The notes under the pieces are model-generated. The model did no database searches. It was not told the DNA's origin and saw only the letters and a list, made by a program, of their open reading frames with translations. Below are positions 3,192-52,287 of a DNA stretch of 64,000 bases, one piece after another. The DNA lies in contig JAMNXP010000004.1 in the NCBI GenBank assembly GCA_023653095.1, forward strand, positions 64,772 to 128,771. The letters run 5' to 3'. Within the stretch, counting starts at the first letter, position 1, and each line of letters starts with the position of its first letter. The position numbers were made by a program, and so were the translations under genes. Source of the DNA: Bacteroidia bacterium (GTDB taxonomy: Bacteria; Bacteroidota; Bacteroidia; NS11-12g; UBA955).

Positions 3192-4055
3192 ATGAGGCAG
3201 TTAAAAATTTCAAAACAGTTTACCAACCGCGAAAACAAGTCCCTTGATAAGTACTTGAACGAAATCTCAAAAGTGCCAATGATTGATGCACAAGAAGAAG
3301 TTCTACTCGCTCAGCGAATCAGAGAAGGTGACCAAGCTGCGTTGGAAAAACTAGTTAACGCCAACTTAAGATTTGTGGTATCTGTATCAAAGCAATACCA
3401 AAACCAAGGGCTCACCTTGGGTGACCTCATTAACGAGGGGAACATGGGCCTAATCAAAGCCGCAAAACGTTTTGATGAAACCCGCGGATTCAAATTTATT
3501 TCTTACGCTGTTTGGTGGATCAGACAATCCATTCTTCAAGCTTTAGCAGATCAAAGTCGTATTGTTAGACTACCCTTGAATAAAGTTGGTAGTTTAGGCC
3601 GTATCACACAAGCCGCTGCCCGTTTGGAACAAGAACTTGAAAGAGAACCTACACCACAAGAAATTGCTGACTCTTTAGAGATTCCGCTAACTGAAGTCGA
3701 AAACGCCTTGCGTTCTTCAGGAAGACACCTTAGTATCGACGCTCCCTTGGCCGAAGGCGAAGACAACACACTGCTTGGTGTTCTTGACAACAACGATGAG
3801 CCCAATCCTGACATGCCCCTTTTGAACGAATCATTGCAAAATGAAATCAATAGGGTTATCTCTACTCTAAGCGACAAAGAACGCGATGTATTGAAGTATT
3901 ACTTTGGTCTTGACGGCAATGCCGCTCATACCTTAGAAGACATTTCAGACAAAGTAGGCCTTACTCGTGAAAGAGTGCGTCAAATCAAGGAGAAAGCATT
4001 ACGTCGATTGAGAAAATCAAGCAAAAGCAAAATTCTGAAAAGTTATTTGGGTTAA
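3192..4055 (+). CDS. rpoD: RNA polymerase primary sigma factor (sigma-70 family, short Bacteroidota SigA type)
   Basis: 287 aa. Region 2 ([40 protein letters not shown]), region 3 and region 4 ([28 protein letters not shown]). Confidence 0.9.
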
Positions 4056-4083
4056 TCATCTGATTATTTACATGCCCAACAAT

Positions 4084-4113
4084 AAAAAGGGCCGTCTCGC
4101 GACGGCCCTTTTT
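4084..4113. terminator. bidirectional rho-independent terminator hairpin
   Basis: AAAAAGGGCCGTC-TCGC-GACGGCCCTTTTT: an 8-bp GC stem flanked by an A-run and a T-run, between convergent rpoD and the adhesin gene. Confidence 0.8.
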
Positions 4114-4135
4114 ATTGTTAACCAAATCAATTATT

Positions 4136-7100
4136 CTAATTCAATAATGTTACTGTACCCTTATATGTGTAAAGCTGGTTATCTACATATCTAAAAACCA
4201 TAGAATATCCATAAACACCTTCAGGCACTTTAGTTCCATCATTATCATATCCTAACCACTTCTCTTCTGGGTTAGTTGTCTTCCACATGATATTCCCCCA
4301 TCGGTCAAAAATCATCAGCTCATACCTTTCTAAACCAAAAGTGGTATATGGACCAAATCCTTCGTTCAAACCGTCAATATTAGGACTAAAGGCCGTAGGC
4401 AACCACATCAACAATTCAGGCTTCAAGAAAATCATTGCAGACGCACTGTCTTTACAACCTGATGGCGTCGATGCCATTAATCTAACCTTGAAATCTCCAG
4501 TTGCACTGAATGTTTTATTTATAGGGCCCATTCCGTAGTCAACTTGTCCGTCTTGGAACACCCATTCTAAATCTGTTGCACCAGAACCCGTAAAATCAAA
4601 TCTCCAATCGGTTTCAAGCCCTTTGCTCAACAAATACTCCGAGGTAAAGCTTGCTTTAGGTTTTACATATATATTTACGGGATATGCAGATGCTTTTCCG
4701 GTACATCCATAAGAACTGACAACATTCAAATTGACTAAATAAGGCCCTGCAGTATTGTAGGTGTATTTTGGGCTGGATGAAGTTGATGTTGATCCGTTAC
4801 CAAAATCCCAAGAATAGGAAGCGGTTCCTTTATTCAGCAGCAATACGCTTCCAAATTGTATTTCTTCACTTGCACAAGCGTCTTTACCAGTAATTGAAAC
4901 CAAAGGAGTTTCTGCTACATATATATTCAATGATTGAGTAGATAAACAACCCTCTGCAGATGCAACTCCCAACGTAACCACTTTAATTCCGGTATCAGTC
5001 AAGGTTTGAGTTGGAATGTTCTTTTGTAAAACCTGTATTGGGGCACCACTGCTACCTGCAATTTGCCACCCATACATAACAGGAGTAGTTGCTCCATTTT
5101 CGTTAGAAGTATTGGTAAACACAAAACTATTCCCTTGAACACATTGTTCATCGTCGTTCACTGTAAATTTAGCTACAGGAACAGAGAAAACTTTTATGTC
5201 TTTTGTCATTGAATCTTTACAACCTTGACTGGAAGTTACTACCATCTTAACAGGATATTTTCCAGTAGAGGTAAATGTTTTATTCAAATACGTTGAACCA
5301 GTCGCAGTCGTTCCATCGTTAAAGTCCCAAAGAACCGTAAATGAACCCGAAAAATTAGTTCTATCTACAAAATCAAAATCTTGGGAGTAATAACAAGCGG
5401 TATCTTTATTCACTGTAAAATTAGCCGTAGGCGTATTCACAACCGTAACCGTAGTAACGGCAGAATCTTTACAACTTTGATTAGAAGTTACAACATGCTT
5501 CACGTTATAAGTACCAACTGCTGCATAAATCTTCACAAAAGAATCATTTGACGAACTAGAACCGTCTCCGAAGGTCCAATCATGGAACAACTTTCCTCCA
5601 GCAGTCCACTTATTGGCACTCTTGAAATTGAACCTATTACCTACCAAACACCCTACGGCATTGTCTGGACTGATGCTCGCATCAGGCACATTATAAACCG
5701 TAAGATTCTTTTGTACAGAGTCCATACATCCATGAACAGTTGTGGCAATTAATCGCACCCAATAAACTCCTTCAGTATTGAATTTCTTAGAAGTAATCAC
5801 TTTTGCATAGTTGCTTGTTCCGTCACTAAACTTCCAATCACTTCTGGCCGTTAATTGACTATTCAAAGCTACCGTACTCTTACACTCTAAATCGAAGAAA
5901 TGTCCATCAAAACAATTTGAACTATCTGTTACCGTTAAGATTGCTTTCGGTTCGGGAGCTACAAATACCGTAGAAAGTGCGCTATCTCTACATCCTTTAT
6001 CAGTCTCTGTAATCAACAATATCTTCTGGGTACCTGTGTCTGAAAACTTGATGTTGGTTAAAGTGCCTTGATTTGGGTACGACTTTCCAGCTATTTGCCA
6101 TTCGTCGGTAAACGAACCAATATCGATAGTTGTGTTATCATAAAACTCAAAGCTGTTGGTTTTCTTGCATTGATCAATGATTTTACTACCAATCTCAGTT
6201 TTTCCCACCGGATAAACAATAAACAATGAATCAATGGTATCATGACAGAAATAAGGAGTCTCTGTAATCAATCGAATATTAAAGGTATCAGCAAATTTAA
6301 AGACATGTCTTCCTTTTCTATCTGAGGTTGTATCTTTAGAAGAACCATCCCCAAAATCCCAGAAAGATCTTCCAACTCCTAGCGGACTACTGCTACTATC
6401 AATAACATTAGCAACGGCGTTTTGACAGAAATGAGTTACGGGAAAGTTGATCTTTGCGATTGGATAAGGGTGAACTATCAACGTTGTATCAAGGGTATCT
6501 CTGCACCCTTTTCTAGATTGAACAATGTATCTGAGATTGTTGGTACTCAGTGAATCAAAAGAAATTTTGAAGTCTTTCGCGCTATCTTTCTTGGTAATTG
6601 CCTTTGTATGTTCATATTGTGCAGACCACCAAGAAACCTTCCAGCCATCATCATTGTATTTGGAACCATCGGTCATATCAAATACGTTTTGCTTGTAACA
6701 TTGATTCAAGGTGTCGTATTTAATGCCCGCATAAATCACATTGGCTCTGCGCACGTAGGTAGTATCGGAAGCGGCACAATTTGTAGAGGTATCTAAGACT
6801 CTAACCCATGCAAATCCGTCTTTGGTTGCTGTAAAAGTATTGGCAGTGGAATTGTCATGCCATTTGTATGTGAACTTCGCAGAAGATGGTACCTTTAGTT
6901 GCACATTCAACGTATTTGCGCATTGAGTGGTGGTATCAGGAAAACTAAATACAGGCCCAGGTAACACGTTGATGATTTTACTTCTTATAATCGTATCATC
7001 TTTATTACAAGCATTGGGAACAACTACTTTCATTAAAACGTAATATGTTCCAATTTTTGAAAATTTATGCGTTACCGAATCACCCCACTCTTCTGGAGAT

Positions 7101-15088: not shown

Positions 15089-15106
15089 TAAATATAACAC
15101 TATCAT

Positions 15107-15138
15107 AAAAAAAGGCTGCCCAAGGGCAGCCTTTTTTT
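15107..15138. terminator. bidirectional rho-independent terminator
   Basis: AAAAAAAGGCTGCC-CAAG-GGCAGCCTTTTTTT between convergent genes. Confidence 0.8.
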
Positions 15139-15156
15139 ATGCAATTAACTTTCAGT

Positions 15157-19800: not shown

Positions 19801-20622
19801 ATGAGCCAAAGAAATTGGGAAACCATCAAAGACTATTCTGACATACTTTTCCAATTCCACGAAGGAATTGCCAAAATAACCATCAACCGCCCCGAAGTAT
19901 ACAACGCATTCCGTCCACAAACCGTGACCGACATGCTTGATGCAATGGATCATTGCCGTGAAAACCCGAAAATCTCTGTGGTGATTCTTACTGGTATTGG
20001 AGACAAGGCATTCTGCTCAGGCGGAGACCAAAACGTTAAGGGAATTGGCGGTTACGTAGATGATTCTGGTATTCCGCGTCTAAACGTTCTTGATTTACAC
20101 AAGAAAATCAGATCACTCCCAAAACCCGTAATTGCCATGGTCAATGGTTATGCTATTGGCGGGGGACATGTGTTGCACGTAGTTTGTGACCTGACCATCG
20201 CTGCTGACCATGCCAAATTTGGTCAAACCGGCCCCAAGGTGGGAAGTTTTGACGGCGGATTTGGAAGCAGTTATTTAGCGCGCCATGTAGGCCAAAAGAA
20301 AGCCCGCGAAATTTGGTTCTTATGCAGACAATATACTGCTGACGAATGCGAAAAAATGGGACTTGTCAATAAAGTGGTTCCCCTCTCCCAACTCGAAGAT
20401 GAAACCGTTGATTGGTGCAACACCATCATGGAACGCAGTCCTATGGCCATCAGAATGCTCAAACGCGCATTCAACGCTGAATTAGACGGACAACACGGCC
20501 TCATGGAACTCGCTGGCGACGCCACTCTTCTTTATTACCTCACCGAAGAAGCTCAAGAAGGCAAACACGCATTCTTAGAAAAACGCAAACCCGACTTCCA
20601 GAAATATCCGAAGTTTCCTTAG
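19801..20622 (+). CDS. menB: 1,4-dihydroxy-2-naphthoyl-CoA synthase
   Basis: 273 aa. [55 protein letters not shown]. Confidence 0.9.
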
Positions 20623-20855
20623 ATCGGTGATCAGCCGTCAGCTCTCAGCTCTCACCTCTCAGCCGTCAGCCGTCAGCCGTCAGCTCTCAGCTCTCAGCTC
20701 TCAGCAACGCCAAAGGCGTAAAGCAACGCGAAGCGTTAGTCTCTAAGTCACAAAGTCTCCGGCGAAGCCGCTAGCCGTCATCCGTCAGCCAAAGACCAAT
20801 GACCAAAGACCAAGGACCAAAGACCAATGACCAAAGACCAAGGACCAAAGACCTA
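20623..20855. repeat. composite heptanucleotide tandem-repeat element, locus A
   Basis: 11 in-phase TCAGCNN units (20631-20707), then a core with three triloop hairpins (20707-20719, 20725-20737, 20760-20770), then 9 in-phase AARGACC units (20791-20853). Fills the whole gap between two convergent stop codons. Confidence 0.95.
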
Positions 20856-21641
20856 TCAAAACAAATAACTCACCGAAATTGAGCCTTGCAAAAGCTTGGC
20901 GTTTAGTTCTCGGCGAGCAATTGCGTAATCGTAAAAGTCTTGAGAATTGGTGGGCACATCTTCCGTTCCCATTTTAACATTTCCAGTTTGATATACCGTG
21001 AATCCAAAACCATAATGGGCGTTAATTCCAATTTCTTTGGTGATCATGCGTTTTACACCAAAATTTAAAGATGTAGCGATTGAAGTTAAACTGCCTGAGT
21101 ATTTGGGAAAATTCATGCCCGCTGTCCAAATAACGTCTTCGCTAGTGGGAGAACAGTTTGATGTACTTAACTCTAGCCCTACATAAGAACCAAATGGCGC
21201 CATCGCTCCTTTTCGTTCACTATAAAAACGTGCTTCTACGGCAACCTCGTTGACGTTGTAATTCAAGGTACCTGACTCCATGGAGATGCGTTGTATACCA
21301 CCGAATGGTTCAACATAATAAATGCCATCGTAATCATCGCTTTCCACCACGTCATTGCGATTACGGTAGCTGAAAAGCCATGAAAATCCTTGACCTTTGG
21401 CCAATTCGTAATCCACTCTAAATCCAGAATTTAATAGCTTCGTTGTTTCGTTGCCGTTTCCAACCATCGCGCGGAGCAATCCACCTGTATGTAAACTGTA
21501 ACCGACAGAAAATCCTTGGCGGGCGCCTAAAAATCCGGGGTTCGACTGCGAAAAAACATCCGCGGGAGCGAAAAACATCCCCGACAAAAAGCCCAATAAA
21601 AGGAAGCGTTTAACGGTTGCTTGGTAAATGTGAAATTTCAT
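20856..21641 (-). CDS. outer-membrane beta-barrel hypothetical protein
   Basis: Signal peptide ...FLLLGFLSGMFFAPADVFSQ and C-terminal aromatic residue (SYLF). Start uncertain (ATG 21641 or 21677); either overlaps the upstream gene's end. Confidence 0.6.
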   Translation of the reverse strand: MKFHIYQATVKRFLLLGFLSGMFFAPADVFSQSNPGFLGARQGFSVGYSLHTGGLLRAMVGNGNETTKLLNSGFRVDYELAKGQGFSWLFSYRNRNDVVESDDYDGIYYVEPFGGIQRISMESGTLNYNVNEVAVEARFYSERKGAMAPFGSYVGLELSTSNCSPTSEDVIWTAGMNFPKYSGSLTSIATSLNFGVKRMITKEIGINAHYGFGFTVYQTGNVKMGTEDVPTNSQDFYDYAIARRELNAKLLQGSISVSYLF

Positions 21642-23880
21642 AAAGTGTCTCATAAATTTGGGCCTTATTGTAATCATCCATCATGCGATAATTCTTGCGT
21701 TTCACGCGGTTCATGACTGCTCTTGAAGTACGCATATTATATACCACTGTGGTCTCTTCGGTGTAGTAATCAACTTTAAATTGGCTATACAGGTAAATAG
21801 GAGTATAAATGGGAAACATGATAGCGTACAAGAAATCATTGACTAAAAAGGGACGCTTCGTAGATTTATACTCATAACCTTCCCAACAAATGAGGGGTTC
21901 ATTTTGGGTTTCCGCGAACCCATCTACAAATTGCGAGTAGAATAAAATCATTTCTTGAGTGTCATTATTTAAACGCTCTGTAAGCCAATCGTTTAGTTGA
22001 CTATATTTAACCAATTGCTCTGTTTTGTAGCCCTCTCGGGCGATATTTTCAACGATTTCAGCTGATACTTGAGAATTTTTAATGACCCAATTCCAAGCTT
22101 TTAACAATTCAATTTTCTTGGTTTCTTCACCAAAATAATTGCGTTTATTTACTCCTCCAAAACTTGATGTATAGTAACTAAAGTTGGGCTGCAAAACAAA
22201 AATTTTCTGGGTTTCATTGAGGTTTTTTTGATACCTCTTCCGATTCACTTGATCTAACTCAGCCATTCTCTCGCGGAATCCTTTTCGCGGTGCTACTCCT
22301 TGAGTGCCCGAAGTGATTCTATTCACCTCCAGAAAATTGGCTATGTTTTTAAGTTTCAGTAAGTGATAAATAGACCCATAATGATAAGGTTTTACCCCAG
22401 GATTACTCGAAATTTGACCAGGTTTAACCAATCCACCATTTTTAGTGGGTTGGGCTTCACTTTTCACGGACGAATCAAGACTAAATTTCAGGTATTCATC
22501 AAGATTAATTACACCGATAGCTTGAGTGATATTCAATAGTTTCGCACCCAATTGATCTATAAAAAGATCAGAAGGATATCTATTTTTTTCTTCCAGCACG
22601 ACTTTCAATGCAAATGAATTCATTTCTTTTGCATCCAACTTGAGGAGCGCAGCGCTCAAAGGACGCCAGCCACCTCTATTGTCTAGAACCGAACAACCAT
22701 AGGCATTTAAATCTTTGAGCTTCCATCTATGTTCAGCTAAGGCATAGGCATTCATAGCTTTTACTCTAGAGATAAAGGGTGATGAACCATACAATAATTC
22801 AAAAACACGGGTCAAATACAGAGACCTACCATGGTCACCCCGGCGAACATACAGCAAGAGCAATTCGTACCTTGAAATTTTGCGGACCATTTCAAATTCC
22901 TCTTTAGAAAAGAGAAATTTCTTTTTTTCAGATAGATTTAGGCTTTTCACATCACCCTGCAATGCCATAATTCTTTTATCTAAGTTGGGATGAGAAGAAT
23001 AAGCATCATTCAATTCCTGTTCAATTCGCTTACGGTCCTTTTTTTCTGCTTCTTCCAATAGAGAAGTAACGCTTGACTTTAAATTTTCAGGAAAACGATA
23101 ATAACGAGTTTCAAAAGAATCAATACTCCATTGAGCCTCGAGAAATGGGTGATCTTGGTACTTTAAATTTTCAAATACATTAATGCCCTCAGAAAAGTCA
23201 TATTCCGTTTCACGCAACATTTCAAAACCCATTTTGTCAGCCTCTTCCTCTTGTCCTACATTGAATTTATAGAACGCTTTGATTCTCTCATCTAAATCTG
23301 AACCTCGGGAATAACCGCTAACATATTTGGCTTCTTTGTAGGCAATTAAAGAGTGTTTAAGAATGTAATGCTGCAATTCATGAGCAAGAATGACGGCCAA
23401 CTGAGCTTCGTTATCCAATCTAGCTAAAAGTCCCAAACTAACAAAAACCAATCCATGATGGGTTACATAAGCATTGGGAACATGAGAACGGAGCACAAAA
23501 AACTGCACTTGACTTTGCAATTCGGGTTTTGACGCCAAAACTTTAAGACCTACTTTCTCTAGGAAATTTGTCATGGGATCTCCGTACAAAATTTGACCAG
23601 AAGTCAAGATTTGATCTTCCAAAAAATTAGATTGTATGGCAAATTCCAATTCGCGTTTGCGGTCTCTACCTGAAGATTTTGAAGATCTAATTCTTCGAAC
23701 TTCCTCTTGAGCCTTAGCGCTAGATAATTTTTTGAGATTGTAAGGAACTTCCCCTGAACAATATAAGGGCTGGTAATTATTAAAATCAATAGGCCCCGTC
23801 ACCACTGCTTGCGCTGAAACGAAACTATTAGAGCCTGCCAATAATACAAATGAAGCAATAACCTTGCTGAAAGAATTCAT
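21610..23880 (-). CDS. M48 family metallopeptidase, large secreted form
   Basis: Signal peptide and zinc motif AHELQHYILKH (HExxH). 756 aa. Confidence 0.75.
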   Translation of the reverse strand: MNSFSKVIASFVLLAGSNSFVSAQAVVTGPIDFNNYQPLYCSGEVPYNLKKLSSAKAQEEVRRIRSSKSSGRDRKRELEFAIQSNFLEDQILTSGQILYGDPMTNFLEKVGLKVLASKPELQSQVQFFVLRSHVPNAYVTHHGLVFVSLGLLARLDNEAQLAVILAHELQHYILKHSLIAYKEAKYVSGYSRGSDLDERIKAFYKFNVGQEEEADKMGFEMLRETEYDFSEGINVFENLKYQDHPFLEAQWSIDSFETRYYRFPENLKSSVTSLLEEAEKKDRKRIEQELNDAYSSHPNLDKRIMALQGDVKSLNLSEKKKFLFSKEEFEMVRKISRYELLLLYVRRGDHGRSLYLTRVFELLYGSSPFISRVKAMNAYALAEHRWKLKDLNAYGCSVLDNRGGWRPLSAALLKLDAKEMNSFALKVVLEEKNRYPSDLFIDQLGAKLLNITQAIGVINLDEYLKFSLDSSVKSEAQPTKNGGLVKPGQISSNPGVKPYHYGSIYHLLKLKNIANFLEVNRITSGTQGVAPRKGFRERMAELDQVNRKRYQKNLNETQKIFVLQPNFSYYTSSFGGVNKRNYFGEETKKIELLKAWNWVIKNSQVSAEIVENIAREGYKTEQLVKYSQLNDWLTERLNNDTQEMILFYSQFVDGFAETQNEPLICWEGYEYKSTKRPFLVNDFLYAIMFPIYTPIYLYSQFKVDYYTEETTVVYNMRTSRAVMNRVKRKNYRMMDDYNKAQIYETLYEISHLPSNR

Positions 23881-35329: not shown

Positions 35330-36199
35330 ATGAATAATTTGAGGTTTCTTATCGGGGGATGTTTCCTCTTCTTCGCCATCCAAGTACAAGCTCAAATTGG
35401 GCGCAAACCCATCACTCCTGATTTAAACGGACAACCAGTTACTCCAAATTTTCAAAAAACAACTACTACAGGAACTAACCCAACGGCTCCCGCTGAAAAT
35501 AACGCCAACAGCGCAGCACAGCCTGCGCCTCAACCCATCATCATTCAACAAAACTCCGAAAAAAAAGAAATCATCATCAACAAGCCCAAAAAAGGTGACT
35601 TTTTGATAGAAGGACTTGCGCAAATCAGTTTCGGGAATGCCCCCCTGATGATTCGATTTGATGACGTGAAACTTCGCTTATTCAACGAAGACAACCGTGT
35701 TTATCGTGTGCGCGGAATCATCAATACCACTACTGAAAATCGGACATTTGAAGAATCTCGCGGACAACAAGTAGAAGTTAAAATTACAGACCAAGACATT
35801 CACGGGGCCCTAGGAGTTGAGTTTCACCTAAAATCAAAAAATAAACATTTATCACCCTATTATGGTGCCGAAGTCATGCTCATCATGCGTACTCAAGGCA
35901 TCAAAGGAACCAACACCGATGACGGACGCACCTATAAATTTCAATATTCATACAACGAAACCATCAGCCGCACGGGTATCTACGCCGGCGGATTTGCTGG
36001 ACTTGACTATTACCTAAATTCAGACTTCTACATCGGCACCGAAATTCAAGCTGGCTTCTCTGCCTTAAACATCCGAAATTCTGGCCAATCAGTCTCCGTG
36101 GGCAATAGTCTCATCTCTCAAACAGGCTTTTATTCCGGAAATGAAATGAGCTTAGGCTTCAGTTATTCTCCTGGAATTCGTATAGGTTATAAATTTTAA
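35330..36199 (+). CDS. outer-membrane beta-barrel hypothetical protein with low-complexity N-terminal linker
   Basis: Signal peptide MNNLRFLIGGCFLFFAIQVQAQ, a Pro/Thr/Asn/Ala-rich linker, and C-terminal GIRIGYKF. ATG 35330 preferred over TTG 35303. Confidence 0.6.
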   Translation: MNNLRFLIGGCFLFFAIQVQAQIGRKPITPDLNGQPVTPNFQKTTTTGTNPTAPAENNANSAAQPAPQPIIIQQNSEKKEIIINKPKKGDFLIEGLAQISFGNAPLMIRFDDVKLRLFNEDNRVYRVRGIINTTTENRTFEESRGQQVEVKITDQDIHGALGVEFHLKSKNKHLSPYYGAEVMLIMRTQGIKGTNTDDGRTYKFQYSYNETISRTGIYAGGFAGLDYYLNSDFYIGTEIQAGFSALNIRNSGQSVSVGNSLISQTGFYSGNEMSLGFSYSPGIRIGYKF

Positions 36200-36255
36200 T
36201 TCATATTTAACACAGCAATAATAGCACCCTCAAAATTCCAGCGTTGATTTGAAGG

Positions 36256-36930
36256 ATGCAACCTAAACTCGCTGTGTTTGACATGGCTGGAACGACTATC
36301 AATGATAACGGACTTGTTCAGCAAGCCGCTGTAAACTCCATGTTCAATATTCTTTCAGTTTCTGTATCAAAAAGAGATGCTGATTTAGTTATGGGTATTC
36401 CAAAAAATATTGCTTTTGAAACTCTTTGTAATAAAGCAGGAATTTCAGCAGACGAACATACCATCAACCAACTGGTTAAATACTTCAACGACGAATTAAA
36501 CTCGCTCTACAGTCATTCTGAAAATTTATCTTTAATGCCTTTTGCCATGGAGTTATTTCAAGCCATGCACAACGCAAATACTTTAATTTACTTAAATACT
36601 GGATTCGAAAGATCAGTAGCAACAACCATTATTAAAACACTGAATCTGGAAACAGTGATTGACGGATATATTGGTTCTGATGAAGTTGAGAAAGGAAGAC
36701 CTAACCCAGATATGATTTTCAAAGCAATGGAGAAAACCAATATTACGAATGCCTTTGACGTCATGAAAGTAGGTGACACTGTAAGCGATCTTTATGAAGG
36801 ATATTCCGCGGGCTGTAGATATAACATTGCTGTTTTATCGGGAGCTCAAAACTTTGATGAATTATCATCATGTCCGCATACACATATCTTTGAAAATCTG
36901 GAACCTATCATTGATTTCTTTAAAAATTAG
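36256..36930 (+). CDS. phosphonatase-like HAD hydrolase (PhnX-like clade)
   Basis: Motif I AVFDMAGTTINDNG resembles the PhnX DWAGT motif; VGDTVSDLYEG is motif IV. Genomic context with the FAD oxidoreductase and HD protein supports the call. Confidence 0.7.
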   Translation: MQPKLAVFDMAGTTINDNGLVQQAAVNSMFNILSVSVSKRDADLVMGIPKNIAFETLCNKAGISADEHTINQLVKYFNDELNSLYSHSENLSLMPFAMELFQAMHNANTLIYLNTGFERSVATTIIKTLNLETVIDGYIGSDEVEKGRPNPDMIFKAMEKTNITNAFDVMKVGDTVSDLYEGYSAGCRYNIAVLSGAQNFDELSSCPHTHIFENLEPIIDFFKN

Positions 36931-36954
36931 GTGATTGACGAATACTGACAATCA

Positions 36955-38208
36955 GTGAAATCAACGCTTAAATCTAAAATTATCACAGCCGTAATTCTCG
37001 GCTTGGTTTCGTTAGTTACATATTCTTGTATGTATGCAATCAGAAAACCATTTTCTGGATTTATTTACACTGAATCGCTTTGGGGATGGAACATTAAAAA
37101 TTGGATGGTCATTGCCCAATTAATTGGTTACACACTGAGTAAATTTTTTGGCATCAGATGGGTGGGACAACTCAAACACCAAAATAGAAGACGTCAACTC
37201 ATTATTCTTTTGATTTTAGCCTCCATACCCCTTTGGGTGATGCCGTTATTGCCCATTTTTTCATGGCCCATATTGATGCTCTTAAATGGTTTCCCTTTAG
37301 GCATAGTTTGGGGAATAGTTTTTAGTTACATCGAAGGTAGAGACTTAACTGAATTCATAGGTGCAATTCTAGCTTGTACATTCGTTTTTTCATCAGGCTT
37401 TGTAAAATACTTGACTCTTTTAATACAACAAGAACTAAGTGTTTCTAACATAATCGCAACGGCCATAACATCTGCATTGGCATGCTTTTTAGCCATAATT
37501 TTCTCTTTGTTTCTTGATAAAACACCGCCTCCAAATGAGTCTGAAGCCAAGCACCATGCAAAAAGAAAAGAGCTCAGTAAAATCCAACAAAAACAATTCT
37601 TCAAGGAAAACTTGAATTTCCTAATTCCCGCTATTCTAATCTATTCTATTCTCACATTCTCCAGAGATTTTAGAGACAATTTCACCGCTGAACTATTAGC
37701 AGCAAACCACGATTATAACGGACTGAATATTGCGAAATACGAAACGCTAATCACCCTCGTACTGTTGAGTTGCATTCCCTTTCTATCACTGATTAGAAAC
37801 CATCTTAAAGCTATCCAAATCACTTTCATAGTTTCTGCATTTGGAAGCTTATTAAATCTAATTGCCCTACAATTATTTGAATTTGAAATTATCACTAGTA
37901 CCGCCTTTTTTCTCGTGACAGGTTTCGGATTATATGGGGGATATATTCTAATTAACATCAGCATCATGAACAGAATTGTTGGCTTTAGAAAATCACCTGG
38001 CAATTGTGGTTTTCTCATGTACTCAGCAGATGCTTCTGGTTATTTAACCTCAATCATAGTGATGTCTATTGCCCTTTTTCAAAATAAAATCAATGTTGAC
38101 TGGTTTGGAAATTTTAAACTATTAATTGGAATAGGCAGTATTTTAATTACCATAATTTCAGTAATTCCTATGTTCTATTCCTATAAATTAAAACACATCA
38201 ATGAATAA
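36955..38208 (+). CDS. polytopic membrane protein, putative (amino)phosphonate transporter
   Basis: About 12 predicted TM helices and a GTG start. Sandwiched between, and overlapping, phosphonate-catabolic genes. Substrate is inferred from context only. Confidence 0.55.
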   Translation: MKSTLKSKIITAVILGLVSLVTYSCMYAIRKPFSGFIYTESLWGWNIKNWMVIAQLIGYTLSKFFGIRWVGQLKHQNRRRQLIILLILASIPLWVMPLLPIFSWPILMLLNGFPLGIVWGIVFSYIEGRDLTEFIGAILACTFVFSSGFVKYLTLLIQQELSVSNIIATAITSALACFLAIIFSLFLDKTPPPNESEAKHHAKRKELSKIQQKQFFKENLNFLIPAILIYSILTFSRDFRDNFTAELLAANHDYNGLNIAKYETLITLVLLSCIPFLSLIRNHLKAIQITFIVSAFGSLLNLIALQLFEFEIITSTAFFLVTGFGLYGGYILINISIMNRIVGFRKSPGNCGFLMYSADASGYLTSIIVMSIALFQNKINVDWFGNFKLLIGIGSILITIISVIPMFYSYKLKHINE

Positions 38209-39325
38209 ATCTGTAAACATCGTAGGTGCAGGCATCATTGGATTAGCCTTTGCACGAGCATTTTCACTAAAAGGATATCAGGTAAATGTATTTGAAAGAA
38301 ATGAAAAAGTTATTGGCTCTTCTATCCGAAATTTCGGAATGGTTTGGCCCATTGGCCAGCATAAAAATGGCATGCTCAACCGAGCAAACCGAACTGCAGA
38401 AATCTGGCAAGAAATATGCGAGGAAGCTCACATCTGGTATAAAAAAACAGGCTCGCTGCAACTTTTATGCAGCCCAATTGAAATTACTATGGGACAAGAA
38501 TTCTATGACGCTGAAAAAGATGCCCGTCCTGAATTAGAATTCTACACGCTTTCTCAGGTTCAATCTTTAGTACCGTTTGTAAATAAACAACACGTTAGAG
38601 GTGCGTTATTTAGCCCTACTGAATTGATTGTAGAATCTAGGGAGGCCTTGCGATTATTACCTGAATTTTTAACTTCCAAATATCAGATAAATTTCCATTT
38701 TAATACCACGATCATTGACTGCTACAATAATACACTAACTACAAGCGCCGGCCAGAAACATCAAGCCGATCTAACCATTATTGCCAGCGGTTATGAAACC
38801 CAATTACTATTCCCTAATGTATTTGAATTGGCTCCTATTACCATTTCAAGTCTCAATATGTTAAGAAGCTACCCCATCAGCGACCAAATTCCAGCGCTTT
38901 GCGCAGGATTGAGTTTCTTGCATTATCCTTCTTATGAAGTTTGTAACTCTTGGCAAGAATATCAATCGTATTGCGAAAATGAGTTTCACTTACAAGTTCA
39001 AAACGGGGTACATCTATTGATTTCCCAAAATGCTCACGGACAATTAACTATTGGAGATTCTCACCATTACGGAAAACACCATGATCCCTTTCAATCCAAC
39101 GATATTGACCAAATCATATTAGACTATATGAATCGCCTATTAAACCCAATAAATTTCAACGTTGCAGAAAGATGGACCGGTCAATATTTAAAGTTAACCA
39201 ATGGAAAAAGTGAGTGGTTTGAAGAAATTCAACCCAATACCTACATTGCAAATGGAACTGGAGGTGCAGGAATGACTTTAGGATGGGGAATGGCCGAAGA
39301 ATGCGTTGAAAAAATCATCCATTAA
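38201..39325 (+). CDS. FAD-dependent oxidoreductase of the phosphonate-operon-associated (DAO-like) type
   Basis: Rossmann motif IVGAGIIGLAFARAFSLKGYQVNVFER. 8-nt overlap with the upstream transporter gene. Confidence 0.75.
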   Translation: MNKSVNIVGAGIIGLAFARAFSLKGYQVNVFERNEKVIGSSIRNFGMVWPIGQHKNGMLNRANRTAEIWQEICEEAHIWYKKTGSLQLLCSPIEITMGQEFYDAEKDARPELEFYTLSQVQSLVPFVNKQHVRGALFSPTELIVESREALRLLPEFLTSKYQINFHFNTTIIDCYNNTLTTSAGQKHQADLTIIASGYETQLLFPNVFELAPITISSLNMLRSYPISDQIPALCAGLSFLHYPSYEVCNSWQEYQSYCENEFHLQVQNGVHLLISQNAHGQLTIGDSHHYGKHHDPFQSNDIDQIILDYMNRLLNPINFNVAERWTGQYLKLTNGKSEWFEEIQPNTYIANGTGGAGMTLGWGMAEECVEKIIH

Positions 39326-39869
39326 GGCATTTTTCAATATCTTTCCAAACATTGATAGGTATTTCAGAATCTAAATCCAGTCGCTTACCTTCATCGTCCC
39401 AACGTCGGAGCTGTAAACATTCTTCGAAATAAGGTTGTTCTCTATATTTCTCACTCTCAGCATCGCTCAAGTGGCCACCTTGCAGATGAAAACTATTTAA
39501 ACTGGCCTGTGACAACTTATCAGAATAACCTGCTTCATTGCTCACCAAATACCTTTTAGCCCAAACGTGGGAATTTATTAACGTTGCCACTTTCTCTGGA
39601 AATCCCCATTCCAGTAACATCGTCGCGGCTAATTCCTCGTGCTTAAAGTCTGTTTCAAACTCATTCGAGGGTTCATAGGATAAATGACCAAGATCATGAA
39701 GAAAAGCAGCCACCCGAAGTTCCAAACTCGCATTTAACTCAACAGCTAATGTCCAACATTGTATGGCGTGTTCTAATTGGGTTATGTTCTCACCGTAATT
39801 CATTTTCCCTTTCTCTTGAAATAGATTTTTAATGGTGTCAATTATTTCATTTTTCATTGGTACAATCAT
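39315..39869 (-). CDS. HD-domain protein, PhnZ-like phosphonate-degradation-associated
   Basis: ITQLEHAIQCWTLA...AAFLHDLGH matches the phosphonate-associated HD family pattern. Start moved to ATG 39869 because the longer ORF runs through a terminator hairpin. Confidence 0.7.
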   Translation of the reverse strand: MIVPMKNEIIDTIKNLFQEKGKMNYGENITQLEHAIQCWTLAVELNASLELRVAAFLHDLGHLSYEPSNEFETDFKHEELAATMLLEWGFPEKVATLINSHVWAKRYLVSNEAGYSDKLSQASLNSFHLQGGHLSDAESEKYREQPYFEECLQLRRWDDEGKRLDLDSEIPINVWKDIEKCLNG

Positions 39870-39874
39870 TTTAA

Positions 39875-39908
39875 TTAAAAAAAGGAGGTGAAACAAGTTC
39901 ACCTCCTT
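39875..39908 (-). terminator. rho-independent terminator after susD-like gene
   Basis: The minus strand reads AAGGAGGTGAA-loop-TTCACCTCCTT followed by a T-run, about 30 nt after the SusD stop. Confidence 0.75.
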
Positions 39909-39936
39909 AACCAAACTTAACTATTCTAGAAAAACA

Positions 39937-41526
39937 TCATTTTAGAATCCACATTTCAGCGTTGATGTCGTCTTGACCACCAAACTGAGCGTCTACAGCC
40001 GCTTTCCAACTAGCTTGGTTGTTGGTTCTTTCACTAGCAGGATATTGATATCTCAAAGGAATTTTACCACTGTTACCAGTTCCAGGACCGTTTGTAGAAA
40101 AAGCAGGGAAGCCAGTTCTCCGATAGTTGAAATATCCTTCCAAGCCGCTGTTCTGGAAGAAAGATAAATACTTCTGAGTAATAATTTGTTGAAGGCCTAA
40201 ATTACCAGCACCTGCATACTTTACACTCATTTGATTGAAGTAAGCAGCTTCATCAAAATTATAAGTATTCTTGATATAGTCTGAAGAATTGGTTGGGGTT
40301 CCACCATTCCTGAAAGCGTAAACATCTAAAGGCCCATTTTTAATTCCATAGAACTCCATACTTGCTTTGATACCCTTAATGTACCAATCAGAAGCACTTT
40401 CGCTAATCCAACCTCTGTGTGCTGCTTCAGCGATATTAAAACACATTTCAGAATATCCTACTTGAATACAAGGTTCAGCTACAAAAGTGCGGTACCAACG
40501 GTAACGATTATACAATGAGTACTCACCATTCAAAAAGTCACCACCATTGCTCACCTGCATGCGGGTTGACATATCAGCCAAATCCTGATTAGCATCAGCA
40601 CCAACAAATGACTCAAAATCAGTATAACCTGAACCGGCTTTTAATTTAGCTCCCGAAGGCTCAGCTATGATGAAAGCTCTTGGATCTTTCAAATAAGCCA
40701 ATGCAGATAAATTAGTTGAAGACATGTTGTAACGCAATGCATCAAAACCATAATTATCCGGGCTCACTGGGTACTTGTTCAATGTGCTGTTATATAGAAA
40801 CTGCATATTATCAGCATTCGAAGTAAACACAGGGTACTTAGAAGGATTAGAAACAATAGCAGCAAATTTACCTTTAACATTCAAATCGGCATCAGACTCC
40901 TTGTTGCTCAACGACATCAAAACCCTTAAGGCAAATGTGTTATTCAACTTCTGCCAAGCCATCAAATTATTGTTGAAATAAATATCCCCATTAAAGGCCA
41001 TTTTCCCTTGGTTTGCTAATTCAGTCATGTCAGCGTTAGCTTCTTCCAACCAAACCAAAACTTGCTTGAATACCTCTTTCTGAGAATCGTATTTTGGCAA
41101 GAAGTTATCTGTTTTCAAAGCTTCAGACATTGGAACGTCTCCAGTCAACATGGTCATTTGATAGTATAAATAGGCTCTAAAAAACTTTCCCAAAGCAGAA
41201 TAAGGATTGACATCTGGATTTCCCACACGTTTAGCTTCCTCTTCCATTTTGATGACATTTTTTAAAGTAGTAAATGACCAACTTGCACCACCCCAATTGT
41301 ACTCATTATTTCCGTAGTAATTGTAGTTGCAAAGATTGTATTGACATATTCTAGCATCACCACCCCATGGGCGCTGATTGATAGAAAAGCATATTCCGTT
41401 CAACACCAAGTCAGGTGTTACTTGCGTTGGGCGATTAGGATCTTTATCCAATCCATCCACTGAACAACTGTTCATTGATACAACCAATGTAACTGCTGCT
41501 GCTATTGCAAAAATTATTTTTTTCAT
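39937..41526 (-). CDS. SusD/RagB family nutrient-binding outer-membrane lipoprotein
   Basis: Lipobox VVSMNSC. 529 aa, immediately downstream of a SusC-type gene, with TPR-like helical composition. Confidence 0.85.
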   Translation of the reverse strand: MKKIIFAIAAAVTLVVSMNSCSVDGLDKDPNRPTQVTPDLVLNGICFSINQRPWGGDARICQYNLCNYNYYGNNEYNWGGASWSFTTLKNVIKMEEEAKRVGNPDVNPYSALGKFFRAYLYYQMTMLTGDVPMSEALKTDNFLPKYDSQKEVFKQVLVWLEEANADMTELANQGKMAFNGDIYFNNNLMAWQKLNNTFALRVLMSLSNKESDADLNVKGKFAAIVSNPSKYPVFTSNADNMQFLYNSTLNKYPVSPDNYGFDALRYNMSSTNLSALAYLKDPRAFIIAEPSGAKLKAGSGYTDFESFVGADANQDLADMSTRMQVSNGGDFLNGEYSLYNRYRWYRTFVAEPCIQVGYSEMCFNIAEAAHRGWISESASDWYIKGIKASMEFYGIKNGPLDVYAFRNGGTPTNSSDYIKNTYNFDEAAYFNQMSVKYAGAGNLGLQQIITQKYLSFFQNSGLEGYFNYRRTGFPAFSTNGPGTGNSGKIPLRYQYPASERTNNQASWKAAVDAQFGGQDDINAEMWILK

Positions 41527-41544
41527 GATTAATTATAATATGAA

Positions 41545-44500
41545 TTAGAAGGTCAAATTGATGTTCACACCATATCTTCTCATAGTTGGACTCTGAAGAG
41601 CTGAATAACCTGTCATTCCAGGGAACTGATCTAAGTCAAGATCATGCAAACCTTTAGCGAAGTAAATTAAATTTCTTCCCACCAAAGAAACAGATGCTCC
41701 TTTGAAAGTCTTACCCATCATACTTGAAGGAATGTTATAAGTGATGGTCAACTCACGCAACTTCATGTAATCTTTCTTCATGATATTCGCTTCAAACTGA
41801 CCATAATAACGACTGATATAATCTTGTAAATAGGTTTGAGTTTCATTATTCTTGAACGCCAATTCTTCGTAATTGGTAATTTCACCCGTAATTGGGTCAT
41901 ACTTGATGCTACCAGAAGCAACTTGTACACCTTCACCCAACCAAGTTTTTTCTCCACGAGTATCTGCTTCACGAGCGTTTGCCATTGAATTGCCATTGGC
42001 ATCGGTTAAATTATCTTGAACAGTCTCAATGTGACGACCACCACGGAAAGTTTGACGTTGAATTTGGTTTACAACCAATCCGCCAATTCTACCGTCAAAT
42101 TGCAATCCCACCGTAAAATTCTTGTAGGTAAACTGGTTGTAAAAACCAATCACTAAGTCAGGCAATGTATAACCTTGGAACTGACCTTTAGGCAATACAA
42201 TTGGTCTTCCACCCGCATCATTTATCAAATTACCATCTTTATCGCGAGCAAAACCATTTGTGTATAAAGCATCAATACGGTCACCAACCTTCAAGAAACG
42301 GTTACTTGAGTTATCACTTACAAAGTAGTTCGCTGAAATTTGATTTACATCACCATATACGGCTGTTAAGAATTCTCTGTAACGAGACAAATTCAACATA
42401 CTGTTCCAAGCTAAAGAACCCTGTTTACGAGCCTTGATTACATCTCCTTTGAAACTTACTTCCCAACCTTTACGTTGAGTTTCAATTCCGTTAACCACTT
42501 GGTTGGTGTAACCAGTTGCTTCAGAAATTGTACGAGAGAAAATACCTGGACCGTCATTGTAAACATAATAAGTTGCTTCAACGCTCAATCTATTGTTGAA
42601 CATACGAGCCTCAGTTCCAAATTCAAAGTCTACACGCTCAAATGGAGCCAAACTTGCGTTAGGCAACACGTTGGTGTAGTTGGCAGAAGGCTTTCCATTG
42701 TATAATAAAGGCGTATTGTAGATACCAGAATTCACATACGCAGGACCGTCGTAGGGCGTAGAGTAATTTGACCCATAACCCAAAGTACTACCCGCTTGAG
42801 AAACCAATGGAGTAGTCAAACCACCTTTTACTTGTGCAAAAGAAGCACGGAACTTCAAGAAATTCAATGTCTTTGACTTTAAATTGGTGAATAATTCGGT
42901 TGGTAAGAATGATAAAGAAGCAGATGGATAAATAAATGAATTGTTGTCAGCAGGCATGGTAGAAAGTTGGTCCATACGGGCACCTAAGTTTACAAAGATG
43001 TACTTATAACCTACGTCAGCTAAAGCATATAATGAGTTAACAGCCATGCTCGAATTGAAGTTGAAAGATCTAACAGGGTTAGCGCTATTAGCAAAGTTGT
43101 AAACTTCAGGAACGTTCAAATAGTCTGTAGTTGTCCAGCTACTGGTGTAATTAAAATCACGACGGTTACCTCCAAAAGAAGCGTGAATGTCTAAATCACG
43201 ACGTTTTTTAGTGTAATTAAATAAAAACTCGTTGTTCATTTCGAACATTGCTCTTCTGTCTTCGCGGTAATCACCTCTGTTCTCTTCTCTACCATATGGG
43301 TGAGCACTGAAAGGCATTTTTTCTGTGCGCAATACATCATAAGTAGTTGCAGATGATCTAACCATCAAGTTCAAATCTTTGGTAATATCATAGTCAAAAC
43401 TAGTATACCCATAAAGATCGTTCTTATAATGTCCGCGTAACCACTTGTATGCTACGAACCAGGGGTTCTGATAACGCTTGTACTCAGAGTGAACAGATTG
43501 AACACCTTCTTTACCAGGCTGCCAAATTCCGCGAATGTCATCTGACATCACATCCCAATCAGCTCCTTGCCAAATTACAATGTTATAAATTAGAGAGTTT
43601 GGACCGTAAACTACATCATTGATGTTATCTGTTGCTTGACGGTTGTAGTTAACCGTTGCATTCATTCTGAATCTATCAGAAAAACGAACGGTATTTGATA
43701 TATTGAAGGTATTGCTTGATAAACCAGTATTTGGAACAATACCTTGTTGATTCAAATTACTGAAAGAGAAACGAATATCAACCTTATCTGTAGATGAAGC
43801 AATGCTAAAGTTATTGGTATTTAAAATTCCAGGTTGTAGAAATCTCTGTAAGTTATTCTTTCCGCGAGCTACAAAAGGAGTCGGGGTACGCTGACCAGTA
43901 ACAGGATCAATAGGACTATCGTATTGAGCCAATAATTGACCGTTTAACTTTGGACCCCAAACATCATAGTCGCCGTCATTAGTTCCACCGCCTAATCCGT
44001 CAACAAATGAATAGTTACCGTGGTCACCAGGTCCGTATTCATCCTGAACCTTTGGAATGGTTAAAAATCCATTTTCAATCATAGTAGATGAGTTAAAATC
44101 TACTGAAATACCGCCCTTGGTTCCTTTTTTAGTAGTGATAACAATAGCGCCATTTTGTCCTCTGTAACCGTAAAGTGCAGCAGCAGCCGGACCCATCAAA
44201 ACAGAAACTTTCTCGATGTCATCAGGTGATAAGTTGTAAGCATCAGAGTTGATCGGAATACCATCTACTACATAAAGAACTGATTGACCTCTTCTGATAT
44301 CACTTCCACGAAGTACCACTTGAGAAGTACCTAACAATTCGGCGCTTTGCCCTATGGTCAAACCTGCCACTTTACCCACCATGTTATCTAACACGTTGGT
44401 CTCTCTTGCTTTGACTAAGGATGCACCTTTAATTTCAGAAACGGCAAAACCTAGTTTCTTTTTGTCTTTCTTGATTCCTAGCGCTGTAACTACTACCTCT

Positions 44501-44619: not shown

Positions 44620-44799
44620 TTGGTTGAGTTTGTTTTTCAAATCAACCACCCCAATGTTACGATAAGCGACCTTAAATATTATCCAATAATAAACAACAAA
44701 AAATTAATATCGAACCCTATAATTTGAATTTATTAAATATAATTAATCATATATTTAATTATATATCAATATTTTAAGAATTTATATATAAAATTAAAA

Positions 44800-46869: not shown

Positions 46870-46878
46870 CCGTTTAAA

Positions 46879-49329: not shown

Positions 49330-49330
49330 T

Positions 49331-52141: not shown

Positions 52142-52287
52142 CTCTCAATAATCCGAATTGAATTAAAACTAGTTGTTTCGCTGATTATAAGTAATTGTTA
52201 GGTTAAATACCTGTAGTTAACATTCCACTAATAGAAAAAAGGTAAAATAACATATAGATTAAAGAAATAGTCCTATTTTCGCTCACT

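Follow-up and report, generated by a model that had tools for sequence, protein, structure and literature searches.

Introduction

In many bacteria no long simple repeat is commoner than the tandem heptanucleotide array, whose purpose has gone unexplained since the STRR (short tandemly repeated repetitive) sequences were reported in 1990. The cyanobacterial STRR heptanucleotide repeats, from Calothrix and Nostoc, were reportedly described by Mazel et al. in that year, and prokaryotic long simple sequence repeats with 7-nt units are said to have been treated by Mrazek et al. in 2007. The named units STRR1-3, from heterocystous cyanobacteria, are CCCCAGT, TTGGTCA and CAACAGT. Our subject is a family of heptamer arrays in a 64,000-nt stretch of a Bacteroidia genome (assembly GCA_023653095.1, contig JAMNXP010000004.1, positions 64,772 to 128,771), referred to below as the window. 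The element that gives the fullest view of it, locus A, occupies from end to end the 233-nt gap between menB and a convergent gene at 20856-21677; four sister elements in the window are designated loci B to E.

Two of the closest described systems are these. MacGregor (2015) found TAACTGA repeats and larger heptamer assemblages in intergenic DNA of Beggiatoaceae, cyanobacteria and five Bacteroidetes; these repeats are absent from close relatives, contigs were seen to end in them, and a role in rearrangement was considered possible (PMC4679880). The heptamer arrays studied by Rehm (2015), GGGAATC in Xanthomonas and GGGGA(T/C)T in Nostoc, are rare in divergent gaps and in coding sequence, usually overlap a stop codon or come no more than 50 bp from one, and in many cases form inverted pairs; those of Xanthomonas are mostly transcribed and somewhat enriched at transcript starts and ends (PMC4692102).

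Set beside these, the present family is a lineage-specific, ordered mosaic variant of the STRR-type heptanucleotide satellites. The class of heptamer arrays and its positional habit were already known; what is new is a dense Bacteroidia family with a fixed module order, a single register and a covarying GNA core. An earlier note on this DNA, made from the letters alone, had recognized an STRR-like family of intergenic heptamer arrays, rightly so: the units have period 7 and are non-coding, the loci are many, and copy number varies. Its remark that no description of the family in Bacteroidota was known overstates the novelty, as assemblages of heptamers have been reported in Gramella, Aequorivita, Elizabethkingia and Flexibacter (PMC4679880). 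The reading we favor, with a probability of roughly one half, is that of a dispersed, lineage-specific mosaic heptanucleotide satellite that evolves at the DNA level by slippage and occupies the niche of transcription terminators.

Results

Five ordered mosaics and their 7-nt register

Period-7 arrays were located with Tandem Repeats Finder (TRF) over the full 64-kb window, supplemented by direct reading. They form five composite elements, A to E (Table 1), with about 1.1 kb of repeat DNA per 64 kb. Three consecutive TCAGCNN units give 20 matches in the window and two consecutive CCAARGA units give 11, while 100 dinucleotide-preserving shuffles gave none of either. All five loci listed in the earlier note were found by TRF, with none in the shuffles; the period-7 arrays of the window are far beyond chance.

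When each element is oriented with TCAGC on the top strand, one module order proves common to all five window loci and to about 30 elements of a sister metagenome-assembled genome (MAG), CAZGQS01, including elements that lay outside the selection made by search pattern. This fixed order had no place in the earlier description. The leftmost module is (TCGGTGA/TCGGTGG/TCGGTTA)n; the second is (TCAGCNN)n, with TCGGCTG in some copies. A middle part comes next, followed by a conserved junction in which (T/C)(C/T)AGCC gives way to AARGACC, and the right end is (CCAARGA)n closed by one or two CTAAAAC/CTAAGNN units, which often hold the TAG stop codon of the neighboring gene. Three versions of the middle part exist: in A and C it is a group of GC-rich mini-hairpins; in D and E it is an inverted heptamer hairpin with (CTCTAAA)n and CTCTCCCCTC after it (B has the inverted hairpin only); or there is nothing at all. 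Locus B is oriented opposite to A, C, D and E, so that its CAGCCGA and CCGANCA-type arrays, which adjoin the stop of gene 53205-54212, read TCGGCTG and TCGGTGN on the minus strand.

Cutting locus A into 7-mers from the stop codon leaves the register of the flanking arrays intact through the core in every allele. One register runs across the middle part in A, B, C and E and, overall, in 6 of 16 independent elements, where 1 in 7 would be expected (p=0.02). In its behavior an element is therefore a single extended array of heptamers, with a unit that shifts from one end to the other.

At locus A, the 11 TCAGCNN heptamers previously counted are indeed 11 in-phase units, but one of them is TCACCTC, and a TCGGTGA-type unit precedes them. 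The nine AARGACC heptamers stand, as does their 28-nt super-unit, which TRF returns as 2.3 copies at 100% identity and which points to a recent block duplication. The three mini-hairpins of the 83-nt core were located as described, and DNA folding predicts all three; the core itself is not unique, as had been thought, since close copies occur at other loci of the sister genome and a related core lies in C.

Arrays that change in steps of seven

Locus A of other samples was recovered through exact-protein look-ups. Five alleles, with gaps of 180, 208, 233, 297 and 325 nt, were found in genomes 93-96% identical to the window; every length difference among alleles is a multiple of 7, and changes fall in each of the arrays. 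The variation in copy number between strains that the earlier note had proposed to look for is thus present. In one genome (L157) the core has been duplicated in register together with a few units beside it, 91 nt or 13x7 in all, and another (L472) has two core copies with a longer array between them, the second copy bearing mutations that break two stems. The same look-ups returned no further alleles of C and D.

A scan of one genome per species, for TCAGCNNTCAGC and CCAARGACCAA separated by 70-100 nt, returned 62 loci, of which about 24 came from CAZGQS01, with further elements within those loci. This MAG (L156-L207, contigs CAZGQS0100000xx) was submitted under the name 'uncultured Rhizobium sp. 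SRP318679_co1_28'. Its G+C content is 41% and its nucleotide identity to the window 89-93%; given that composition and that identity to a Bacteroidia sequence, the Rhizobium label is almost certainly wrong. Loci A to D are all occupied in CAZGQS01 (four of four orthologous sites), with altered contents. Its locus A has two cores. Locus B is 242 nt in the window and about 60 nt in CAZGQS01, with the same flanking genes. Locus C has an extra inverted core fragment and a TCGGCTG block, and in locus D a CCAARGA array replaces the CTCTAAA module of the right half. Synteny between window and CAZGQS01 breaks inside element D. Signs of rearrangement or recombination, suspected in the earlier note, are accordingly at hand in duplicated and inverted cores and in this break, which lies beside an HpaII restriction-modification island. 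The arrays gain and lose units in multiples of 7 and in multi-unit blocks, very quickly, while positions and cores are stable at 89-96% identity.

The core had been expected to recur beyond the window, and it does, at 95% identity in the sister MAG. Cores are 95.3% identical between window and CAZGQS01, compared with 86.4% for third codon positions (p=4e-4). For other intergenic DNA the figure is 97.6%, at least as high as for the cores, and a special constraint on the core was rejected on that ground.

Placement against stop codons

Placement was surveyed in the window and in 18 independent CAZGQS01 loci, with gene calls based on open reading frames (ORFs); the loci had been sampled for containing elements. 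Element-bearing gaps were convergent in 11 cases, tandem in 7 and divergent in none, compared with 18, 87 and 27 among element-free gaps, a convergent enrichment with an odds ratio of ~10 (Fisher p=3e-5). Placement is non-random, at gene 3' ends and against stops, as the earlier note had it. Stop-facing array ends are separated from the codon by no more than 10 nt in 28 of 41 cases (median 3 nt), whereas start-facing ends have a median distance of 25 nt. In the window, the CCAARGA/CTAAAAC end comes within about 4 nt of a stop codon or overlaps it at all five loci, so the stop-codon placement claimed before was correct and its count of four in five too low. All five lie between ORFs with Pfam-supported or conserved products, intergenic and non-coding as stated before, with any overlap with a stop or a C-terminus limited to the last one or two units.

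In roughly 18 of 20 cases the CCAARGA end points toward a stop codon that belongs to an opposite-strand gene, although convergent gaps are uninformative about orientation. Among tandem gaps, manual check left 5 antisense and 2 sense cases, which makes for a weak rule, the exceptions being L161b, upstream of pdxH, and L206a; the proposal that 3' untranslated regions (UTRs) begin with (GGTCYTT)n in the sense of the gene concerned thus applies to most elements but not all. Orientation set by replication was rejected, the split of 17 to 9 relative to local GC skew being non-significant. Most convergent pairs have a gap of about zero, so an element between them meets both stops, and contact with stops needs no recognition of stop codons. 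Preference for very short convergent gaps over much longer divergent ones, in turn, does need either targeting or strong selection.

Elements in place of terminators

No hairpin in the five elements has a T-run behind it. In the survey, a terminator-like site occurs in 1 of 17 element-bearing gaps, and 10 of 11 element-filled convergent gaps have no other terminator. Of the element-free convergent gaps of the window, only those at 4056-4135 and 15089-15156 have room for one, and each holds a textbook bidirectional terminator with an A-run, a GC hairpin and a T-run, which shows that the organism uses canonical terminators where a heptamer element is absent; the remaining convergent pairs of the window abut or overlap. 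Identity of the elements with canonical intrinsic terminators was rejected, as no hairpin is followed by a U-run, and the terminator role considered in the earlier note fails in that canonical form. At gathering score, Rfam recognizes only a tRNA-Phe in the window; weak C/D-box matches in the arrays are chance CUGA matches.

The state of locus A before the element could not be read from other Bacteroidota, as no synteny was found in 80 menB loci; members of the 90% menB protein cluster supplied it. In L470 (77% menB nucleotide identity) a canonical bidirectional terminator, with no heptamers, comes after the ortholog of gene 20856-21677. Together with the terminators missing from element-bearing gaps, these relatives, free of arrays, indicate that the elements hold the terminator niche and that the locus A element arose within the clade. 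Two further relatives at 76-77% menB nucleotide identity (L476:2530-2560 and L478:1380-1405) also lack arrays and have, right after menB, a lone GC-rich hairpin with a GAA triloop, then GCATA(A/G); the hairpins are CAATCCC-GAA-GGGATTG and GACCCC-GAA-GGGGTC. Such a hairpin may be a precursor of the core or may be the usual 3'-end structure of the clade.

These observations bear on the strongest competing explanation, that the elements are selected as RNA, the transcribed 3' UTR acting as a non-canonical terminator, an exonuclease barrier or an insulator between convergent genes, as repetitive extragenic palindromic sequences and bacterial interspersed mosaic elements (REP/BIME) do in enterobacteria. 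We consider it possible but rather unlikely. Placement at 3' ends against stops, the near absence of canonical terminators from element-filled convergent gaps, the textbook terminators in the two roomy element-free gaps, the terminator at the orthologous gene in L470 and the lone hairpins after menB all speak for it, as does the finding that Xanthomonas transcripts start and stop at heptamer repeats more than at control repeats (PMC4692102). It sits poorly with the variation in module content and length between loci and alleles, which is great enough that locus B has nearly collapsed in the sister species, and with the fact that most convergent pairs in the genome abut or overlap with no terminator at all.

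Mini-hairpins and folding

Folding, too, bears on an RNA element. Triloop hairpins with stems of at least 4 bp comprise 20 with GAA loops, 6 with AAA and 4 with GAG, nearly all closed by C-G. Among the GAA/AAA hairpins outside arrays, no fewer than 11 distinct GC-rich stem sequences were counted; without exception the purine loop falls on one and the same strand of the element. Window-wide, GC-rich GAA/AAA hairpins with stems of 5 bp or more occur only inside A to D, and the idea of a second, REP-like set of GAA hairpins outside the elements was rejected because scan matches were confined to those elements. Ten core copies were aligned: 81% of cells pair, and in four pairs both sides have changed, with no one-sided (G-U) intermediates; the covariation score was reached by 0 of 500 shuffles, in a small sample of related copies.

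Whole elements fold well below their dinucleotide shuffles on both strands, with mean z of -3.4 and -3.6. At locus A alone the G/U-rich strand scores -3.3 and the other -0.8, an asymmetry that is not general. The low folding energy and the covariation suit an RNA element, whereas the absence of a U-run after any hairpin, the strand symmetry of folding and stems free of G-U pairs count against it, and RNA-specific structure was rejected because both strands fold equally well and the stems lack G-U pairs. By their sequence the core stems are of the d(GCGNAGC) mini-hairpin DNA type, work on which, in d(GCGAAGC) and d(GCGNAGC), is reportedly due to Hirao and co-workers. Mini-hairpins of the C-GAA-G kind are of extraordinary stability as DNA, far above that as RNA, where GAA triloops are weak, a further point against selection as RNA; they resist nucleases, are poorly bound by single-stranded DNA-binding protein (SSB), and have known natural sites in single-strand replication origins of phages and plasmids and in N4 promoters (PMC13037366).

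A profile search with the two core types matched only this clade and a tandem run of GCGAAGCG-YRAGTCC units in a Bacteroidota MAG labelled Chitinophaga pinensis (L160:2240-2345). The units of that run are ~17 nt long, combine a GCGAAGC-type mini-hairpin with AGTCC, and are related to the locus C core; the run lies 4.5 kb from a TCAGCNN...CCAAAGA composite in the same locus.

Dispersed copies and the weaker alternatives

Close copies of the locus A core are found at two unrelated loci of CAZGQS01, L189 and L163, and inverted core copies at L163b, L167 and L192; L159, L170 and L182 are elements with no hairpin core. The nearly identical and inverted copies would suit a non-autonomous mobile element of REP/RAYT (REP-associated tyrosine transposase) or IS200/IS605 type, in which a Y1/HUH enzyme encoded elsewhere recognizes the C-GNA-G hairpins and copies the core to fresh sites close to gene ends, the arrays being secondary growth. 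So would a hairpin type stable in single-stranded DNA (ssDNA) with its purine loop on one strand, the lack of terminal inverted repeats and target duplication, as in that class, and the related units in L160. We judge this improbable all the same: there is no transposase among the about 30 window proteins scanned and no conserved cleavage or target motif at element ends, the hairpin core is missing from many elements, and occupancy of all four orthologous sites in the sister species means no recent movement. Filled and empty states are not seen side by side among close relatives, locus A being filled in all relatives at 93-96% and the four orthologous sites in CAZGQS01; a locus A site with no element appears only in relatives at ~77% menB nucleotide identity.

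At loci C and D array ends lie 38 and 17 nt upstream of start codons; no array is coding, and most lie between convergent genes. An effect of copy number on the genes beside C and D is conceivable. Those distances, and a register held across cores above chance, would fit a putative protein-binding array with 7 nt per subunit (for a cold-shock, S1 or RRM-type protein), or a contingency locus whose copy number tunes a neighboring gene; CspB binds heptamer repeats with one protein per unit, according to a citation in PMC4679880. We regard this as very improbable, as units vary both within an element and from one element to the next, 10 of 16 elements lose the register, and most copies sit between convergent genes with no promoter to tune.

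An assembly or sequencing artefact can for practical purposes be set aside: short-read contigs often stop within or beside arrays (one contig is exactly the B-to-C array interval), so copy number in any single assembly is uncertain and may be wrong, yet the same element, core and module order, recurs in six or more assemblies made independently from different samples, as well as in a second species, which settles in favor of real arrays a doubt that the earlier note had raised.

Occurrence in other genomes and viruses

Among 80 menB loci of other Bacteroidota (407 kb), any period-7 array was found in only 3, so the density of the window is lineage-specific. One of the 3, a Bacteroidota contig with 71% MenB identity (L282:3818-4050), has a composite straight after the menB stop, built from (GTGTTCC)n, from (GAGTTTGAG)n with its 9-nt unit, and from (GATCTTT/GTCTTTT)n; it stands at the same end of menB and is independent of locus A.

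Four consecutive TCAGCNN units matched at least 120 viral contigs, and scrambled control units matched 116 and 63; as a class, heptamer arrays are generic. In a phage-like contig (L042, IMG/VR contig 3300045936_000120), hairpins of the form (TCAGCNN)n-loop-(NNGCTGA)n lie between a stop and the next start in many gaps, e.g. at 3296-3395 and 5885-5975; this contig is a dense, symmetric version of the TCAGCNN heptamer. Arrays of TCAGCNN and CCAARGA on one strand were met also in Acidobacteriota, Desulfobacca, Phycisphaerae, the Bacteroidota MAG labelled Chitinophaga and cyanobacteria, where loci of Microcoleus (L191) and Moorena (L172) hold TCAG-type and CCAA(T/G)GA-type arrays side by side. As scrambled control units are also common, the co-occurrence of TCAGCNN...CCAARGA across phyla is possibly generic, and we do not claim conservation. 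A search for similar DNA in annotated plasmids or phages, with the low-complexity filter on, gave no match, and the unit strings had no printed occurrence in the searchable literature. We also considered a link to the Shine-Dalgarno/anti-Shine-Dalgarno pair, as GGTGATC is the exact complement of the 16S 3'-end GATCACC and AAGGA of CCAAGGA resembles a Shine-Dalgarno core; possibly a coincidence, with a rough post hoc p of about 0.03, it was dropped as post hoc and as inapplicable to other heptamer families.

Features of the window

Coordinates of the elements and their parts are collected in Table 1. The locus C core is akin to that of locus A and is 95% conserved in the sister MAG.

Table 1. 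Composite heptamer elements of the window, their parts and adjoining stop codons. Positions are those of the 64-kb window; strand is that on which the module order reads left to right.
Locus	Feature	Position	Strand	Description
A	menB stop	20620-20622		TAG
A	whole element	20623-20855
A	left arrays	20623-20707	+	ATCGGTG x1 straight after menB TAG, then 11 in-phase TCAGCNN, one being TCACCTC
A	core	20707-20788	+	three mini-hairpins, AGTC-type units interspersed, then degenerate TCAGCC-type CTAGCC, GTCATCC, GTCAGCC
A	mini-hairpin	20707-20719	+	ACGCC-AAA-GGCGT
A	mini-hairpin	20725-20737	+	AACGC-GAA-GCGTT
A	mini-hairpin	20760-20770	+	CGGC-GAA-GCCG
A	right array	20789-20855	+	nine CCAARGA/AARGACC units, 2 nt short of the stop codon
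A	TRF period-7 arrays	20631-20705, 20789-20853		the latter also the 28-nt super-unit
A	stop codon, gene 20856-21677	20856-20858
B	whole element	52963-53204
B	right-end module	52963-53004	-	six GGTCCTT-type units (- strand CCAAGGA), directly after TAG of OmpA-like gene 52288-52962
B	junction	53005-53036	-	inverted-heptamer hairpin ACAGCT-TTC-AGCTGT at 53008-53022
B	remaining arrays	53037-53204	-	13 perfect CAGCCGA, then about 11 CCGACCA/CCGAACA/CCGATCA
B	TRF period-7 arrays	52962-53004, 53037-53128, 53124-53203		second array, the 13 perfect CAGCCGA
C	whole element	~55658-55941
C	left array	55658-55819	+	about 21 TCAGCNN-type units; first unit 38 nt upstream of start of gene 55168-55620 (- strand)
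C	core	55820-55913	+	GCACC-GAA-GGTGC 55837-55849, GCGAAGC 55875-55881, GAGTCC/AGTCAC units
C	right end	55914-55941	+	CCAAGGA CCAAGGA CCAAAGA CTAAAAA CTAAGGT, in phase with left array; last heptamer-like unit is the TAG stop of gene 55942-56613 (- strand)
C	TRF period-7 arrays	55671-55819, 55914-55935		first array, 21 units
D	whole element	~56630-56777
D	left array	56630-56725	+	about 13 TCAGCNN units
D	middle	56720-56736, 56741-56772	+	hairpin ATCAGCT-GAA-AGCTGAT, then (CTCTAAA/CTCTTAA) x4.6
D	tail	to 56777	+	CTCTCCCCTC tail entering stop of ORF 56778-57137
D	TRF period-7 arrays	56637-56725, 56741-56772
E	whole element	~60892-60995	+	TCGGTGA x2.3, degenerate TCAGC units, CTCTAAA-type x3.4 (60924-60947), CTCTCCCCTC, CCAAAGA CCAAGGA
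E	8-nt repeat	60980-60995	+	CTAAAACC x2 (also by TRF); final copy encodes C-terminal residues and TAG of SOUL-family gene (- strand)
E	TRF period-7 arrays	60892-60907, 60924-60947

The window has 40% G+C and encodes SusC/SusD-like proteins and type IX secretion system (T9SS) sorting domains. The island between D and E, at 57295-60794, has genes for a restriction endonuclease of HpaII type (PF09561, E=9e-132), for a C5 cytosine methyltransferase and, divergently oriented, for an HNH-HIT fusion; the tRNA-Phe lies at 61634-61707, shortly past E. Immediately left of E, at 60836-60894, is a 25-nt direct repeat, TTTGTAACAAAGCGAACCCAATTTC x2 with the copies 9 nt apart, whose second copy enters the first TCGGTGA. 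Next to D, ORF 56778-57137 contains a 15-nt tandem repeat, TTTTTCGGGGGATGT x2.2 at 100% (57072-57104), that encodes SPEKT repeats, and a 23-nt repeat x2.5 occupies 57201-57256 in the AT-rich region upstream of this ORF. Arrays of (TCGGTGA)n, e.g. at 53124-53203 and 60892-60907, present a GATC site each 7 nt. Several frames are open through the arrays, giving spurious ORFs at 52966-53316, 52980-53306 and 55634-55885 with 7-residue repeats such as PTADSRQ and SAVSGQR, which gene callers could record as hypothetical proteins.

In CAZGQS01, at L192:1-99, a match to window 36110-36208 is joined directly to a match from 52271 onwards. The intervening 16 kb of the window (36209-52270), absent from CAZGQS01 or located elsewhere in it, holds a SusC/SusD pair, TonB-dependent receptors and phosphoesterase-like proteins; the junctions carry no heptamer array.

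Discussion

The satellite reading would account for the elements as follows. A founder with a hairpin core would have spread through copying or recombination, and its arrays would lengthen by replication slippage and unequal recombination in 7-nt steps until coding sequence was reached. The C-GNA-G mini-hairpins and inverted arrays may fold on single-stranded DNA, promoting slippage and local rearrangement. Copies would persist only in the terminator niche because insertions into promoters or operons are selected against. Any effect on transcripts, as a structured spacer between convergent genes, would then be a by-product or a secondary co-option and not the reason for the existence of the elements; some role at RNA 3' ends is plausible.

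Several findings weigh against this account. No mechanism for the postulated copying came to light: terminal inverted repeats are absent, the about 30 window proteins checked include no transposase, and close relatives show no polymorphism between filled and empty sites. With 10 of 11 element-filled convergent gaps free of terminators, the element may be needed to end or insulate transcription. The compensatory stem changes (4 pairs; 0 of 500 shuffles) and the conservation of cores at 95%, against 86% at third codon positions, point to some selection on the core, though not of a kind special to it, other intergenic DNA being 97.6% conserved. Convergent enrichment is far above what gap length would lead one to expect and could mean targeting, not selection alone; the survey behind it used ORF-based gene calls and loci picked because they bear elements.

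A bolder proposal, which we consider quite improbable, is that the mosaics are the footprint of an ssDNA system in which an enzyme or filament protein advancing in 7-nt steps (primase-, HUH- or SSB-like) would recognize C-GNA-G hairpins and write, copy or maintain in-register arrays at gene ends. The elements would have replaced intrinsic terminators in this clade, and the same machinery would lie behind the TCAG- and CCAA(R)GA-type arrays of cyanobacteria, Acidobacteriota, Planctomycetota and phages.

Whichever account is right, this clade offers an unusually clean case of heptamer repeats: a dense family, a fixed order, a covarying core, a terminator niche, several natural alleles and a relative that retains the terminator. 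It makes two questions concrete, whether heptamer repeats end or insulate transcription and why the unit is 7 nt. On the practical side, the arrays break short-read assemblies, yield spurious ORFs and can serve as strain markers. The organism is uncultured, and the general phenomenon is already in the literature.

Comparison with described systems

REP/BIME elements resemble the present ones as many-copy mosaics of short motifs, hairpins among them, at extragenic 3' ends and between convergent genes, with positions conserved between strains; by analogy, the present elements may have a REP/BIME-like way of working. They differ in that the ~35-nt REP palindrome and its GTAG head, the alternating orientation and a RAYT gene all fail to come into view here, and in that tandem 7-nt units and hypervariability of this kind are foreign to BIMEs. 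The elements contain neither the ~35-nt palindrome nor an inverted pair of units, their hairpins being 11-17 nt with stems of 4-7 bp, and no RAYT (Y1 transposase) gene was found among the about 30 window proteins scanned. The minisatellite carried by a MITE (miniature inverted-repeat transposable element) of Porphyromonas gingivalis is likewise a dispersed non-coding element of Bacteroidota with an internal variable tandem repeat and is reportedly transposon-derived (PMC4596501), of a class that terminal inverted repeats define. Here the 7-nt unit makes up most of the element, and the element ends show neither terminal inverted repeats nor target-site duplication, the two ends carrying different heptamer modules.

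With the mini-hairpin DNA motif the cores share stems that close a GAA (or AAA/GAG) triloop by C-G, as in CGGC-GAA-GCCG and GCGAAGC; known examples do not lie within chromosomal tandem repeats, and folding here is a prediction. With the STRRs and 7-nt LSSRs (long simple sequence repeats) the family shares tandem 7-nt units, intergenic location, many dispersed loci and variable copy number, and the STRR2 unit TTGGTCA corresponds to a minor variant, CCAATGA/AATGACC, present as two CCAATGA units, both in locus A. Identity with the named STRR1-3 was not found: the host is a member of the Bacteroidia, and the main units, TCGGTGN, TCAGCNN, CCAARGA and CTCTAAA, are unlike the three named ones. The fixed module order and the GNA mini-hairpin core, which the STRR description does not contain, set the family apart in terms of description.

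The arrays of Rehm agree with ours in the 7-nt unit, placement at stop codons, scarcity between divergent genes and variability. Those units are G-rich and quadruplex-forming, with one unit type per array, whereas the present arrays have no G-runs and set several unit types in order around mini-hairpins. MacGregor's repeats are likewise multi-heptamer intergenic arrays, found in Bacteroidetes among others, and the reverse complement of TAACTGA, TCAGTTA, is a TCAG-type unit; they lie mostly just upstream of start codons, in forward orientation and at few loci per Bacteroidetes genome (PMC4679880). The present family, by contrast, is dense, with five elements in 64 kb, set against stop codons, and built as an ordered mosaic with a hairpin core.

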